In this document: one piece after another, positions 11,682 to 20,000 of the stretch
Position numbering within the stretch: position 1 is the stretch's first letter
How the letters are laid out: each line of letters opens with the position of its first letter
Virus record (IMG/VR): IMGVR_UViG_2808606796_000002
Source of the DNA: an uncultured virus (IMG/VR IMGVR_UViG_2808606796_000002)
Taxonomy: Duplodnaviria > Heunggongvirae > Uroviricota > Caudoviricetes
Reading direction: 5' to 3' (one strand)
DNA: 20,000 nt
Notes under the pieces: generated by a model
Told to the model about the DNA's origin: nothing
The model's input: the letters and a program-made list of their open reading frames with translations, nothing else
Database searches by the model: none
Position numbers and translations under genes: made by a program

Positions 11682-12422
11682 TTATTTAATAATATTGTGT
11701 TGAATCGCATAGTGTTTGCCTGTCGTTGTAAGCCACACATCCTTCTCAGTATCTTGAGTAATTAAACCTAATGACTTCGCTTCTTCGATATATATATCGA
11801 ACATAATTCTGGACATAGGCGCATGTTTAACCAGTTCACCATAATAGACATAATCTCTGGTTTGGCGCTCAAAAAGCGCGGTAACTATCTTCATGACTAC
11901 TAGAACACCATCCCCCGTGCGGTTGGGAGGGGTTTGAGAAATAGGAGTAAAGGGATTATTTGCAACTAATGGTTTTTCATAAAGAGGAGCATTGTGCAAG
12001 GCTCTTATCAGTTCATCAAAAGAAAATTCATATTGATCTGGGCGCGAGAAATCTAAAAAAAGTTTCGAGCGGAGGAAGTTTGGAACATCCTGACTCCCGC
12101 TTTGACGAATTAATGGGATTACCTTATTTGAGTCGATCGTCTTTAGCATATCAGCTGTAACAATCATTTTTTCGTATCCTACTCCGCCAGCACCTGAGTT
12201 CGCTTTTTCAACGTACTTGTCCGTGCAAACCATGAGTACACGGTCTGCGGTGCTTAATCCTTGCTCCATAAAGTGAGGAAGATCATCTCCTGGCTTCAAA
12301 TCCCATTGGTCAAGAAGGGCATCAACACCGTTGTTACGAAGGCGAGTAGCAAACTCAAGAACCCATTTTTTATGTTCTTGAGAATCATGTGAGTATGAAA
12401 TGAAGGCTTTTGGAATAGACAT
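11682..12422 (-). CDS. TIR/SEFIR-domain protein with a probable C-terminal winged helix; candidate anti-phage protein
   Basis: KAFISYSHDS...LRNNGVDALLDQWDL...RVLMVCT...GVGYE...VIPL. The C-terminus is YGEL...EAKSLGLI...WLTTTGK. ATG at 12422 has an AGGGGA RBS (246 aa). AT-rich. Confidence 0.85.
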   Translation of the reverse strand: MSIPKAFISYSHDSQEHKKWVLEFATRLRNNGVDALLDQWDLKPGDDLPHFMEQGLSTADRVLMVCTDKYVEKANSGAGGVGYEKMIVTADMLKTIDSNKVIPLIRQSGSQDVPNFLRSKLFLDFSRPDQYEFSFDELIRALHNAPLYEKPLVANNPFTPISQTPPNRTGDGVLVVMKIVTALFERQTRDYVYYGELVKHAPMSRIMFDIYIEEAKSLGLITQDTEKDVWLTTTGKHYAIQHNIIK

Positions 12423-12538
12423 TACTTCCCCTGTAAGAAGTTTTAACAACATTTTTAACTAACTGATTCAATAGGACACACCATTATTCAGAGCATCTGC
12501 ATTCAGCTATGTTGGTTTGATAAGTTAATAACTAAGTA

Positions 12539-16676: not shown

Positions 16677-17186
16677 TCAAATCAGACCGAATGAAGCGCT
16701 TAAACCACTGACAGTATCAACCACGCTATTCATGGCAGGATTGGTCTGTAAGCGTGCGTGCATCGTCATTGCAGCAAGAGACAAATAGCGAATACCCGAA
16801 TTGACACTCTCAACCATCGAATGCTTGCGGCACGCTGTAAGCTTTTCATCAGATACTGCACCTGCCGCAATCAGGCCTACTTCGGCAGTTGCTTTAAGAG
16901 CGTATAACTGGAGTTTGTCATCGGCTAATTCGTTAACCGGCACGCATGGCAGGCAATGCAATTGAGCCAGAAATCCATCAACTAACGATGGATCTTCAGT
17001 GACGTCAGTGATAGCCATCAGCTCAGGAATATTCAACTGATGCGGCTGCTCTGGATTTAACTTGTTGCGTAGCACCTGAGGGCGCATACCGAGTTTTTCC
17101 GCTAGTTCAGCCAGGTTGTGCTTTGTAGCGAAATTGCGACAGGCATCTTCATAGTGGGGCTGTTTAGAAACTTGATAATCAAACAT
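16677..17186 (-). CDS. cII: 186-type CII activator of lysogeny establishment
   Basis: 169 aa, MFDYQVSKQPH...LRNKLNPEQPHQL...LPCVPVNE. Confidence 0.93.
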   Translation of the reverse strand: MFDYQVSKQPHYEDACRNFATKHNLAELAEKLGMRPQVLRNKLNPEQPHQLNIPELMAITDVTEDPSLVDGFLAQLHCLPCVPVNELADDKLQLYALKATAEVGLIAAGAVSDEKLTACRKHSMVESVNSGIRYLSLAAMTMHARLQTNPAMNSVVDTVSGLSASFGLI

Positions 17187-17218: not shown

Positions 17219-17620
17219 TTATCGTTTGATGTAGCGACAATTGACTGCATGCTGGCGATTCTTTTCACGCCATGCGGCAACGTTAATCAATGCGTTACCA
17301 TGTTTTTCCATCACATCTTTACGTGATTTACCGGTCTCTTTGCAGGTGATTGTGCGAGTGACCTTTGTGGTGGGAGTTGGGGCAAGAAGTACAACGCCAT
17401 TTGCAATCCACTTTTCAAGCAGAGAACTACTGATGCCATTGGCAGCGCAAAAGTTTTCTTTGGACATGGTAGGGGAATTAGCTAGTGCTGCGGCTTTTTC
17501 CAGAGCCTGATCAAGAGCAGTATTGATGGCAGGAACTAACTGGGCTGCGATGCTTGCAATGAAGTCAGGGGAGGCCAGCATCTGAGATGTGAGCTGAGAG
17601 TTTGCATTTTCAGTATGCAT
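17219..17620 (-). CDS. Apl/Cox-like excisionase-repressor
   Basis: First gene of the lytic early operon, divergent from cI; winged-HTH-like MSKENFCAANGISSSLLEKWIANG...LINVAAW; GGAG RBS. Confidence 0.75.
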   Translation of the reverse strand: MHTENANSQLTSQMLASPDFIASIAAQLVPAINTALDQALEKAAALANSPTMSKENFCAANGISSSLLEKWIANGVVLLAPTPTTKVTRTITCKETGKSRKDVMEKHGNALINVAAWREKNRQHAVNCRYIKR

Positions 17621-17678: not shown

Positions 17679-17707
17679 ACTTTAGATCCCTTTTTTGTTT
17701 GTGTAAA
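17679..17707 (-). promoter_or_regulatory. pR-like lytic early promoter
   Basis: TTTACA-N17-TAAAGT on the minus strand, upstream of apl. Confidence 0.6.
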
Positions 17708-17733
17708 CATAAAAAAGAGATTTGATAAAACTT

Positions 17734-18576
17734 ATGCGAATTGAAAATGCGATCGCACCTGAGGTTCTTGAAAGGATTTTGTCTGCATATGGTTTTAAAA
17801 TGCAGAAGGAGCTTGCAGAAAAACTAGGTATTGCAAGTAGCAATGTAGGCAGCTGGATACAAAGAGGGCACGTTCCGGGAAATGTAATTGTCCAATGCGC
17901 TTTGGATACAGGCGCAGATGTGAATTGGATTGTGACCGGTGAGCTTGCAAAAGCAAGTTTAAGTCCGAGGGTTCAGGTAGGGCAAGGCAAAGCCTTATAT
18001 GAAGAGATCATGTCAAATGGTGGTAAACCAGTATTGCGTCGCATAATGGATGCATATGGATTTACCATGCAAAAGCAACTTTGTGATTTACTTGAAATAT
18101 CCTCGGGTACTGTAAGCACATGGGTAAGACGTGATTATTTCCCTGGTGATGTTGTTGTGGCTTGTGCTCTAGATACTGGAGTGTCACTGCAATGGTTAGC
18201 CACCGGGAAAGGTACGCAATACATTGAGAGTGCCGCTATACCTTGTGGCTCGTTAATTCCACGCAAGAACCTGGCAGCAGGTGTTCTGCATGATGCAGGG
18301 CAATGGAATATAGATTTAGGTTTTATATCTCACTCCATAGATGAGCCACTATTCTTATATAGCAGTGCTTCTACGTGGATAGTTGATTTAGGTGTGGTGG
18401 AAATTAGTAATGGTCGCTGGTTACTGGGAATTGATAATAAATATGATGTCTATGATGTCACACTTTTGCCTGGTAGGAAAATTACAGTTTCAAATAAAAC
18501 CTCAAACTTTACCTGTGGTGCTGAAGAAGTAACAACTACCGGTAAAGTGGTTCTAACTATGGAATATAATTTTTAG
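17734..18576 (+). CDS. cI: 186-type CI immunity repressor with two tandem HTH domains
   Basis: 280 aa from ATG 17734. It has two repeats (RILSAYGF...CALDTGADVNWIVTG and RIMDAYGF...CALDTGVSLQWLATG) followed by a 186-like oligomerisation CTD (GRWLLGID...GKVV). Confidence 0.92.
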   Translation: MRIENAIAPEVLERILSAYGFKMQKELAEKLGIASSNVGSWIQRGHVPGNVIVQCALDTGADVNWIVTGELAKASLSPRVQVGQGKALYEEIMSNGGKPVLRRIMDAYGFTMQKQLCDLLEISSGTVSTWVRRDYFPGDVVVACALDTGVSLQWLATGKGTQYIESAAIPCGSLIPRKNLAAGVLHDAGQWNIDLGFISHSIDEPLFLYSSASTWIVDLGVVEISNGRWLLGIDNKYDVYDVTLLPGRKITVSNKTSNFTCGAEEVTTTGKVVLTMEYNF

Positions 18577-18591
18577 AAAAAGGAGAATTTA

Positions 18592-19176
18592 ATGATATAT
18601 ACGTTTGCTCTTATTGGATTGATCAGTACTGTATGGGCTATACGCAGTATTTATTTGAAAGGAAATTGCAGCTATATTAATTTAGCAAAATCGTTATTCG
18701 CTATAATATATTTTACTGCTGCGGTTGTAATGGTGAAGGTTGACCCGCTTGTAACTATTGTTATGCTGTTGTTGGGATCTGCCATTGTTAGTCGTTCTAA
18801 CCAAATCTATAAGTCTCAAAACAGTGCAGGTAAAGATCTCTCCAATGAGCATAAATCTATATTAGTAGACATTGGTGCACCAAAAAGAATGACTTCTTTT
18901 AGCTCCTTACCTTCTAAAAATTTCACTTTGGGTATGGATGCAGGCGGTTTAAAAAATATTGCATTCAATTACGTCAATGCTAATGGTGAAAGTAGTTTTA
19001 GGGATGTCGATGTGAAGAAGTGTGATGGTAATTATATTGAAGGTTACTGTCATCTATCTCATAAATTTAAAACTTTCCGGATTGATCGTGTTGAGGGAGA
19101 TGTCATCCTGCGTGATACTGGTGAAATGATGAATGCCTACGATTGGGCCGATGAGTTAACATCACACAAGTTATAA
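18592..19176 (+). CDS. Membrane protein with a C-terminal WYL-like domain
   Basis: Three N-terminal hydrophobic segments; C-terminal IAFNYVNANGESSFRDV...YIEGYCHL...KTFRIDRV; AGGAG RBS; starts 15 nt after the cI stop. Confidence 0.78.
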   Translation: MIYTFALIGLISTVWAIRSIYLKGNCSYINLAKSLFAIIYFTAAVVMVKVDPLVTIVMLLLGSAIVSRSNQIYKSQNSAGKDLSNEHKSILVDIGAPKRMTSFSSLPSKNFTLGMDAGGLKNIAFNYVNANGESSFRDVDVKKCDGNYIEGYCHLSHKFKTFRIDRVEGDVILRDTGEMMNAYDWADELTSHKL

Positions 19177-19226
19177 TGTGATTACTAGTGTAACCATTAA
19201 AGTTCAACTTTTAAAAGCGCATAACA

Positions 19227-20000
19227 ATGTTAAACCAACACGTTTTAGAGTACTGCTCATCAATTTATGATTTCCTAAAAGGATTGCCTCTTTCACTCTT
19301 TGCTGCAACCTTTGCAATCTATTTTGCTTATATGAAAATTTCTAATAAAGTAGCATTTTCATATTCGGTAAGCTTTAGGGAAAGTGGCGATAAACTGACG
19401 GATTTTATATTAAAAAATCAGAGAGATAAAACATATAGTATTAAAAAAATACTTTGTAAGTTAAATGATGGTAACTTAATTATATTAAAAGATTTCCAGC
19501 CTCCGCTGTTACTTAAGCCCTTTGAAACAGCATTGGTAGAATTTGATGATGTAAGCATGTGGCTAGATAAGGAGGGTGTGAAATACCATCCCGACTATTC
19601 AGAGTTGTTTGAGATTACACTCCTTCTACATAGTGGAGGAAGTGTGAAATGCATTAATAAATATCACTCAGATTATAAAGAAGCTACAATATCACCATAC
19701 GTCTCAAGATTTGATGGATTAATCTTAACGCAAAATATGAAATTTGTTATGAAAGTGGTAACTGATAACAAAACTAAAGATTTAATAATTTATTCACATG
19801 GTTGGATTGAAGGTGATGCTTATTTTGGTGGTTATAATTGTTTGAATAAAGAGGATGTTTCTTTATATAGAATAGTTGAAATTATATCAGAAAAAAAATT
19901 TAATTTAAGCTGGGATTACTATGTTGTATTTGAGATAAATGATTTCCGCGTAAAAAAAGTTTACGATAGCAGATGCCAGGTCGAACTTAGTAATACCTAA
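19227..20000 (+). CDS. Unknown AT-rich protein with one N-terminal TM helix
   Basis: 257 aa and complete (TAA at 19998-20000). GLPLSLFAATFAIYFAYM is followed by beta-strand-like sequence. No family recognised. Confidence 0.7.
   Translation: MLNQHVLEYCSSIYDFLKGLPLSLFAATFAIYFAYMKISNKVAFSYSVSFRESGDKLTDFILKNQRDKTYSIKKILCKLNDGNLIILKDFQPPLLLKPFETALVEFDDVSMWLDKEGVKYHPDYSELFEITLLLHSGGSVKCINKYHSDYKEATISPYVSRFDGLILTQNMKFVMKVVTDNKTKDLIIYSHGWIEGDAYFGGYNCLNKEDVSLYRIVEIISEKKFNLSWDYYVVFEINDFRVKKVYDSRCQVELSNT

Follow-up and report, generated by a model that had tools for sequence, protein, structure and literature searches.

The window analysed here is the whole 20,000-nucleotide stretch of the uncultured virus IMGVR_UViG_2808606796_000002 (Caudoviricetes; G000:C3:2074855-2094854). 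At its right end, an immunity repressor gene, cI, is followed by two further genes, open reading frame (ORF) 1 and ORF2. ORF1, the main subject of this analysis, encodes a protein predicted to join three transmembrane (TM) helices to a C-terminal WYL domain; a P2/186-like prophage carries it as an accessory (moron) gene, and it probably works without a fixed partner. The features concerned are listed below, with strand, protein length in amino acids (aa), and basis, including expectation values (E) where profiles were matched.

17722..18576, plus strand: cI-type immunity repressor, 284 aa (Pfam PF07022, E 1.5e-51, in two matched stretches; PF16452, E 7.3e-18)
18592..19176, plus strand: ORF1, membrane-anchored WYL protein, 194 aa (ORF, homologues and WYL profile matches)
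18592..18798, plus strand: ORF1 residues 1-69, three predicted TM helices (hydropathy, AlphaFold2 (AF2) helices and invariant residues)
18958..19125, plus strand: ORF1 residues 123-178, predicted WYL core with the FRIDR motif, conserved basic residues and a Cys-His pair (Pfam WYL match and wider alignment A5)
19227..20000, plus strand: ORF2, single-pass membrane protein, 257 aa (ORF, stop codon and phrog_14996)
17219..17620, minus strand: apl/cox-like gene, divergent from cI (phrog_3554, E 1.9e-32; phrog_575, Cox-like excisionase, E 5.1e-4)
16677..17186, minus strand: cII (CP76-type) activator gene (Pfam PF06892, E 3.8e-44)

The repressor is of the 186 type, with two Phage_CI_repr helix-turn-helix (HTH) domains and a Phage_CI_C domain in the Pfam profile search, and matched phrog_4 (transcriptional repressor) in PHROGs (E 3.1e-53). 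It is the first gene of the lysogenic transcription unit, and the neighbourhood that it forms with the apl/cox-like and cII genes is the lysis-lysogeny switch region. ORF1 starts 15 bp beyond the cI stop, preceded by the Shine-Dalgarno sequence AAGGAG, and is separated by 50 bp from ORF2, which is complete, since its stop codon provides the final three bases of the window. The GC content is 50.6% for the window, 41.4% for cI, 35.9% for ORF1 and 30.6% for ORF2; coordinates and composition alike bear out the first-pass annotation of this DNA, which had described two AT-rich, co-oriented genes directly behind cI. No terminator-like site was predicted among cI, ORF1 and ORF2. Beyond the window, some 100 bp after the end of ORF2, is a strong terminator-like hairpin followed by a run of T (free energy -16.8 kcal/mol, z -5.5). 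Co-transcription of ORF1 with cI is consistent with its place directly behind the repressor and with the lack of a predicted terminator between the two. A megablast search with positions 17700-20000 produced no match among phages or among E. coli genomes.

Three hydrophobic segments were identified in ORF1 by the Kyte-Doolittle method, at approximately residues 1-20, 29-48 and 52-69, and the AF2 model (mean predicted local distance difference test, pLDDT, 55.6) placed helices at 2-21, 27-47 and 52-93. Hydropathy and positive-inside counts gave three positive and no negative charges for the loop at 18-33, and three positive and one negative for residues 68-85. Because the positive charges cluster in this loop and after the third segment, the predicted topology has the N-terminus outside, with the first loop and the C-terminal part in the cytoplasm. 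In alignment A1, which comprises 18 ORF1-family sequences, the invariant residues of the membrane part were R18-S19-I20, K33, F36, Y40, F41 and G62.

The C-terminal part is, as judged from sequence profiles, a WYL domain. ORF1 matched Pfam WYL (PF13280) over residues 123-168 (E 5.7e-4, 20.3 bits), the PADLOC WYL model PDLC01457 (E 1.9e-6) and phrog_6785 (E 5.7e-11); its PHROGs matches were families of unknown function and one annotated 'DNA ligase'. A word-indexed search grouped the homologues into 19 clusters, ORF1 included, and the few annotated ones, from Erwinia and Pantoea, carried the source name WYL domain-containing protein. Pfam WYL was matched by all 18 aligned members at E <= 0.01 (best 4.8e-6), and more distant relatives exceeded the Pfam cut-off, with 29.1, 33.1 and 27.5 bits. 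Conservation in A1 extended over the full length of the protein, with 40-67% identity across 18 clusters, and some residues of the membrane part as well as of the WYL part were invariant. The wider alignment, A5, left F125, Y127, G132, R137, D140, G151, Y152, C153, F162, R166, R174 and G177 invariant and H154 nearly so; K142, K160 and R163 were also invariant in A1. The ligand groove of WYL domains has been predicted to be lined by conserved basic residues and a cysteine (Makarova et al. 2014, PMC4012209), and residues of this type are kept in the ORF1 family as R137, C153, H154, R166 and R174.

Weak matches to the WYL regions of BrxR (7t8k, E 0.11) and PafBC (6sj9, E 0.36), at the same motif, were returned by a profile search of PDB sequences. 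The AF2 model has four strands at 136-179. At its mean pLDDT of 55.6, structure comparison was uninformative on the fold: Foldseek gave no match to the PDB at E <= 1e-3, and the wide VIA-align list was filled by matches to the helical N-terminus and did not recover WYL structures. All named clusters among the nearest in the Atlas carry WYL, at TM-scores of 0.28-0.42, which are to be taken as leads only. No HTH family was matched in Pfam at E <= 1. Since only about 16 residues follow the WYL core, with one short helix at 182-191, there is no room for a WCX domain; given this and the missing HTH match, ORF1 is not a regulator of the winged HTH (wHTH)-WYL-WCX kind. The architecture proposed from the letters alone, of about three TM segments fused to a WYL-like domain and with neither HTH nor WCX, thus agrees with both hydropathy and profile searches.

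Relatives of ORF1 (hereafter TM-WYL) were sought by searching viral contigs with the ORF1 alignment, which yielded 11 contigs, and by surveying 300 other genomes of the same family. In all 11 viral contigs the TM-WYL gene immediately followed a cI relative that had apl and cII upstream of it; the TM-WYL gene was intact in eight and truncated or split in three (L014, L015 and L016). The gap between cI and TM-WYL ranged from -1 to 17 bp in the 11 loci measured. What followed TM-WYL varied. The next gene encoded a 209-226-aa membrane protein in six viral loci and a 274-aa protein in one; a 74- or 133-aa gene and then a 244-aa gene were present in two, an opposite-strand gene and then int in the last, while one contig ended just past ORF1. 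In one of these contigs, the 209-aa membrane protein was followed by a 404-aa HNH nuclease (L011:7280..8494; Pfam HNH_2, E 2.6e-12; PADLOC HNH, E 1.3e-26).

The ORF1 profile matched 12 of the 300 other genomes. Three of these matches (L019, L022 and L025) had the order cI, TM-WYL and int with nothing between, six were N-terminal remnants or stop-bearing, and three comprised the WYL part only, within other proteins. The cultured Yersinia phage vB_YenM_201.16 (Peduoviridae) had the same order of cI, TM-WYL (annotated as hypothetical) and int, so that int directly followed a TM-WYL gene in four loci. The GC content of TM-WYL was below that of both neighbours wherever int followed; the values for cI, TM-WYL and int were 0.463, 0.358 and 0.486 in L019, and 0.442, 0.373 and 0.485 in L022. 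This lower GC fits TM-WYL as inserted cargo. A search of genome contigs with the ORF1 alignment returned one distant match, in Gemmatimonadota, and the narrower alignment A4 found no match in viral or metagenome contigs (A2 and A3 were set aside as too weakly conserved). Five loci (L021, L023, L024, L026 and L029, in G045, G203, G075, G218 and G019) contained ORFs of 82-109 aa whose match to ORF1 was confined to its membrane part; these lay in non-prophage contexts, with no cI within 1.5 kb and with stops behind some of them, and are probably remnants of decayed prophages. At another locus (L027, G026:C100), a short XRE-like HTH gene preceded a 224-aa TM-WYL relative (Pfam WYL, 27.5 bits), which was followed by a DUF3644 protein matching the PADLOC candidate PDC-S19 (E 4.6e-66).

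The position behind cI was then considered irrespective of its occupant. Of 301 genomes in the family, 95 contained Phage_CI_repr and 13 matched the A1 profile. For the best 30 cI loci, the gene behind cI was counted if directly downstream and co-oriented, as follows.

int: 12 of 30 loci
TM-WYL, one being the window's own locus: 2 of 30 loci
Other cargo: 8 of 30 loci
No clear gene: 8 of 30 loci

Seven of the eight loci with other cargo matched PADLOC models, six of them at clear E-values, with matching Pfam domains in support:

PD-Lambda-1 (SNIPE) with DUF4041, at L043
PD-Lambda-5_A, at one locus
NsnA/PD-T4-2_A (GmrSD_N), at one locus
PARIS-like AriA with AAA_15, at one locus
BRCT protein PDC-S48, then KAP NTPase PDC-S20, at two loci
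PDC-M34B, a weak match only (E 1.2e-7), at one locus

The slot behind cI in enterobacterial P2/186-like prophages is therefore a rich defence hotspot. A hotspot between cI and int has been described for K139-like Vibrio phages (Rousset et al. 2022, PMC9122126). With defence genes recognised by PADLOC at so many of the cargo-bearing loci of related prophages, the earlier guess that the genes behind cI serve in defence was a reasonable one. Phage 186 itself has no TM-WYL gene.

A second kind of WYL protein occupied the same slot. In two genomes, a soluble protein of 157-170 aa, WYL-BRCT, lay between cI and the 209-aa membrane protein; in hhalign, its N-terminal part matched the WYL core of the TM-WYL profile (probability 84%, E 7.6e-6), and its C-terminal part was a BRCT domain (PADLOC candidate PDC-S48). 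Matches to this family were found in 10 of 301 genomes, eight of them strong. Five of the eight stood directly behind cI, the next gene being the KAP NTPase (two), the 209-aa protein (two) or int (one); two others were located beside ogr at the other prophage end, and one was fused into a 402-aa protein. WYL-BRCT resembles ORF1 in holding the slot directly behind cI of P2-like prophages and in having a WYL-like core without an HTH. It differs in being soluble, with the WYL-like part N-terminal and BRCT C-terminal, and in having no N-terminal membrane anchor. Since both TM-WYL and WYL-BRCT hold this position, HTH-less WYL proteins are recurrent first genes behind cI, and both kinds also occur free of cargo.

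These observations are best accommodated, in a judgement that is evenly balanced, by reading ORF1 as an autonomous, single-gene accessory membrane WYL sensor, expressed in lysogens and probably anti-phage. The anti-phage role, argued from position and analogy, is itself given about an even chance; the analogies are SNIPE, for action on entering DNA by a protein tethered to the membrane, and membrane effectors with small ligand domains, such as Cam1, for depolarisation gated by a ligand. ORF1 would be a small inner-membrane protein whose three TM helices keep a minimal WYL ligand-binding domain on the cytoplasmic side of the membrane. Lysogens would express it from the cI operon; in BTP5, a Salmonella prophage of the 186-like kind, low-level transcription of both repressor and integrase occurs under every condition (10.1101/787010). 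In the mechanism judged likeliest, the WYL domain would bind a negatively charged ligand present at the membrane once a phage infects, most probably single-stranded or incoming phage nucleic acid. Ligand binding could then lead either to a block of genome entry, or to oligomerisation of the helical part and depolarisation of the membrane, and the superinfecting phage would fail. Sequence does not decide between an entry block and abortive infection.

Several points weigh against this reading. The Pfam WYL score of ORF1 falls short of the gathering cut-off of 21.8 bits, and the AF2 model, being poor, confirms neither the WYL fold nor any oligomer. Profile searches found no enzymatic or other recognisable effector domain in ORF1, and PADLOC v2.0.0 has no dedicated model for it, the matches being to generic CRISPR-associated WYL models only. 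The adjacency to cI was found by searching with ORF1, and not every cI precedes an ORF1 relative; as an argument for function, 'guilt by location' is weak. Given that copies were truncated or stop-bearing in 3 of 11 viral loci and 6 of 12 genome matches, ORF1 is dispensable and may be neutral. Finally, AT-rich prophage cargo can be silenced by H-NS (bioRxiv 10.64898/2026.09.05.749240), so that constitutive expression of ORF1 is not assured.

An improbable alternative is a shared role for the HTH-less WYL proteins behind cI, as nucleic-acid sensors or adaptors that arm whichever cargo effector follows: ORF2 here, and elsewhere the 209-aa membrane protein, the KAP NTPase, PDC-S19 or the HNH nuclease. 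The recurrence of two unrelated WYL architectures in the first position, with cores that align to one another, speaks for such a role, as does the presence of the same 209-aa protein after TM-WYL (in the six viral loci and G135) and after WYL-BRCT (G200 and G167). WYL-BRCT precedes the KAP NTPase in two loci and a TM-WYL relative precedes PDC-S19 in L027; WYL regulators, moreover, classically head defence loci (PMC11662680). However, int directly follows both types in L019, L022, L025, L033 and L083, where there is no cargo to arm. No WYL gene adjoins the 209-aa protein in G128, where it comes after int, or in G179 and G224, where its surroundings are not those of a prophage, and the adjacency could be explained by two neighbouring insertion slots.

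Equally improbable is a housekeeping function within the prophage, in which the WYL domain would sense single-stranded DNA (ssDNA) arising from DNA damage, as in PafBC, DriD and CapW, and adjust how the repressor acts or how the prophage is induced or excised, a partner being sequestered or released by the anchor. The WYL domains of CapW-type repressors do bind ssDNA and thereby sense DNA damage (PMC11662680), ORF1 is tightly coupled to cI in its operon, and no Tum-like antirepressor stood out in the ORF listing from gene A to the portal gene, which was inspected without a profile search. The distribution is nevertheless patchy (13 of 301 genomes, compared with 95 of 301 carrying cI), TM-WYL accompanies several types of cI, of 186-208 aa and of 284-312 aa, its GC is lower than that of cI and int, and its copies frequently decay; for these reasons TM-WYL fits cargo and not a gene of the regulatory core. 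Phage 186, the reference system for this switch, does without it.

A still smaller probability attaches to the proposal made in the first-pass annotation, that ORF1 and ORF2 form a two-gene defence or exclusion module, with ORF1 as the sensor and ORF2 as its partner or effector. ORF2 has a single hydrophobic segment at residues 20-36 and no match in Pfam, and it matched only phrog_14996, a family whose function is unknown (E 2.7e-25, residues 2-240 on profile positions 2-239 of 260), as expected from the earlier description of one TM segment and unrecognised soluble sequence. A first homologue search returned ORF2 itself only, and tblastn against phages gave no match; an exhaustive search of representatives found 132 homologues at E <= 1e-3, mostly of 240-265 aa. 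The AF2 model, built with 104 homologues aligned, was confident (pLDDT 91.4, predicted TM-score 0.74) and comprised a long N-terminal helix (4-38), a predicted Ig-like beta-sandwich (about 40-147) and a small C-terminal alpha/beta domain. Fold searches against PDB, wide and viral sets gave generic beta-sandwich matches only: the top Foldseek match was an archaeal pilin (8fk7_A, E 2.4e-3, TM-score 0.44), with none at E <= 1e-3, and the best VIA match, to the CupB2 chaperone domain, had a Z of 7.3, within the tool's stated background range (root-mean-square deviation 2.5, 76 residues aligned). In 74 of 104 family members, positive residues were commoner on the C-terminal side of the helix than on its N-terminal side, which weakly suggests that the C-terminal part is cytoplasmic.

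In favour of a common module, ORF1 and ORF2 are adjacent and co-oriented, with neither a terminator- nor a promoter-like site predicted in the gap, and both are membrane proteins by hydropathy. A second co-occurrence is possible: P0005, a homologue of ORF1 with 48% identity, and P0153, a homologue of ORF2 with 47%, are each recorded on a single contig of exactly 18,087 bp from the same source. The survey, however, showed ORF1 relatives standing without ORF2. No ORF2 relative adjoined an ORF1 relative in any of the 11 viral loci, 10 of which were informative, and BLASTP of ORF2 against the genes downstream of ORF1 relatives found no similarity. The 209-aa membrane protein was considered as a diverged ORF2 and rejected, since it has no similarity and occurs independently. 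The ORF2 profile matched none of the 300 other genomes of the family, and hence none of the 12 positive for ORF1; in the class, 3 of 399 other genomes carried a match to the ORF2 family, in unrelated contexts. The difference in GC between the two genes and the four loci where TM-WYL stands alone before int point the same way. ORF1 does not need ORF2, and the two families are essentially never linked in the loci surveyed. ORF2 is independent and interchangeable cargo. Its place near the end of the prophage is a second variable slot, bounded by ORF1 and the attachment site.

Just as unlikely is that ORF1 is neutral or decaying cargo, or has a lysogenic-conversion function unrelated to phages, for example in envelope or stress physiology: truncated or interrupted copies are frequent, ORF1 has no effector domain and ORF2 folds as a generic Ig-like sandwich with no functional match, but the full-length conservation of the family, with invariant residues in both parts, argues for selection on the protein, and defence genes dominate the slot behind cI.

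The ends of the prophage were located outside the window. The genes downstream of ORF2 belong to the host (a solute-binding protein, SulP permease, GNAT, rsmF and an MlaD-repeat protein) and include no integrase; the nearest integrase is encoded on the minus strand beside ogr and D, some 12 kb to the left of where the window begins. A 19-bp exact direct repeat, the putative att core, flanks the prophage (L005:6448..6466 and L002:1975..1993), one copy being 110 bp beyond the 3' end of int and the other 120 bp beyond ORF2, where it overlaps the terminator-like hairpin. From the position of int, the repeat and the host genes past ORF2, the prophage is about 32.5 kb in length, in the order attL, int (minus), ogr (minus), D ... 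A, cII, apl (minus), cI (plus), ORF1, ORF2 and attR. In phage 186 the order is cI, int, Orf69 and attP, with nothing between cI and int, whereas here int is inverted relative to P2/186 and sits at the end opposite cI. The two genes had been placed between cI and int; since int is at the opposite end and on the opposite strand, the term 'cI-int slot' is inexact for this prophage, though apt for its relatives. In the circular phage form, the cI operon and int would converge on attP.

Other features of the same genome were noted. Directly left of the putative attL (L005:3529..6207) are tail-fibre-like genes and a UmuD-like fragment, named by eye; this element looks like another prophage, and the two appear to abut. 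A second cI-type repressor, a 197-aa ORF, is present at G000:C3:4237735-4239233, with an integrase match about 0.9 kb downstream on the same strand; judged by coordinates only, this locus looks like the canonical arrangement of cI and int, without a WYL gene. Within the window, an AT-rich gene for a 256-aa TIR/SEFIR protein (11682..12452, minus strand; Pfam TIR_2, E 2.8e-22, and SEFIR, E 4e-17; PADLOC bSEFIR, E 2e-80) lies between the portal gene and replication gene A, at the position of the P2 old/tin hotspot. Left of the window, a 412-aa FRG-domain protein (L005:14614..15852 on G000:C3, plus strand; PADLOC candidate PDC-S15, E 1.9e-100) is encoded between the tail sheath and tail fibre genes, on the opposite strand to them, at the Z/fun position. 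Counting this gene, the cargo of the prophage occupies three or four slots.

To our knowledge, WYL domains occur almost exclusively as the ligand-sensing parts of soluble transcription regulators or as accessory domains of enzymes. If the reading of ORF1 as an autonomous sensor is true, a membrane-tethered WYL domain expressed in lysogens from a repressor operon, at an established defence hotspot, would be a minimal, one-protein coupling of nucleic-acid sensing to the membrane, that is, a new effector design and a compact tool for probing what WYL domains sense in vivo. Should ORF1 have no phenotype, the finding would be one of ordinary prophage cargo. The literature searched yielded no account of a WYL protein anchored in the membrane, whether in prophages or in P2-like phages, and the WYL fusions listed in the main-text parts covered of Makarova et al. 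2014 (PMC4012209) include none of membrane form. The slot survey extends the hotspot of K139-like Vibrio phages reported by Rousset et al. 2022 to enterobacterial P2/186-like prophages.

Compared with known systems, ORF1 shares with the wHTH-WYL-WCX regulators (BrxR, CapW, PafBC and DriD) a WYL domain with the basic and cysteine signature and an association with anti-phage loci. These regulators have an HTH and a WCX domain, whereas the N-terminus of ORF1 is a predicted three-helix membrane anchor; lacking both domains and anchored in this way, ORF1 cannot be a DNA-binding transcription factor of their kind. One occupant of such a slot already in the literature is SNIPE (PD-lambda-1), a membrane-bound nuclease that cuts phage DNA as it is injected (PMC13190303). 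It is like ORF1 in combining an N-terminal membrane anchor with a cytoplasmic part that binds nucleic acid, as the WYL domain of ORF1 might, and in being cargo behind the repressor of 186/P2-like prophages, as at L043. Neither DUF4041 nor the GIY-YIG (T5orf172) nuclease was found by Pfam or PADLOC in ORF1 or ORF2, although the same scans find them in L043; any block imposed by ORF1 would accordingly be non-catalytic or act through the membrane.

Among temperate phages, exclusion or abortive-infection genes linked to the repressor include lambda rexAB, BTP1 bstA, lactococcal Sie2009 and, reportedly, Ltp of S. thermophilus. We know of no WYL domain in any of their products, and no sequence similarity to ORF1 was found. 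All are accessory genes beside the repressor or co-transcribed with it and expressed in lysogens, as ORF1 would be, and several encode small membrane proteins; rexAB and bstA, which are co-transcribed downstream of cI, represent a recognised class of accessory loci (10.1101/787010).

Effectors of the Cam1, Csx23 and Cap15 type have the same outline as ORF1, with N-terminal TM helices and a small C-terminal ligand domain. Csx23 and Cap15 are ligand-gated membrane effectors of signalling defence systems, and Cam1 is reportedly another ligand-gated membrane effector, with N-terminal TM helices and a small C-terminal ligand-binding domain. They differ from ORF1 in needing a cyclase that makes the ligand (type III CRISPR or CBASS) and in the sensor, which is CARF, SAVED or a beta-barrel and not WYL. 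The neighbours of ORF1 are cI, ORF2 and the host genes for the solute-binding protein and SulP permease, and its relatives are flanked by cI, int and other cargo; no cyclase, Cas or CBASS annotation was found among the scanned neighbours, with no dedicated cyclase search across the whole prophage. Makarova et al. 2014 (PMC4012209) regard WYL and CARF as functional parallels. It is tentatively suggested, as a proposal more doubtful than the reading of ORF1 itself, that the HTH-less WYL proteins, TM-WYL and WYL-BRCT, may form an unrecognised class of first genes behind the repressor. TM-WYL would then be the WYL counterpart of CARF and SAVED membrane effectors such as Cam1: a single protein, both sensor and effector, gated directly by phage nucleic acid at the inner membrane face without a second messenger, and giving partner-free entry exclusion or abortive infection.

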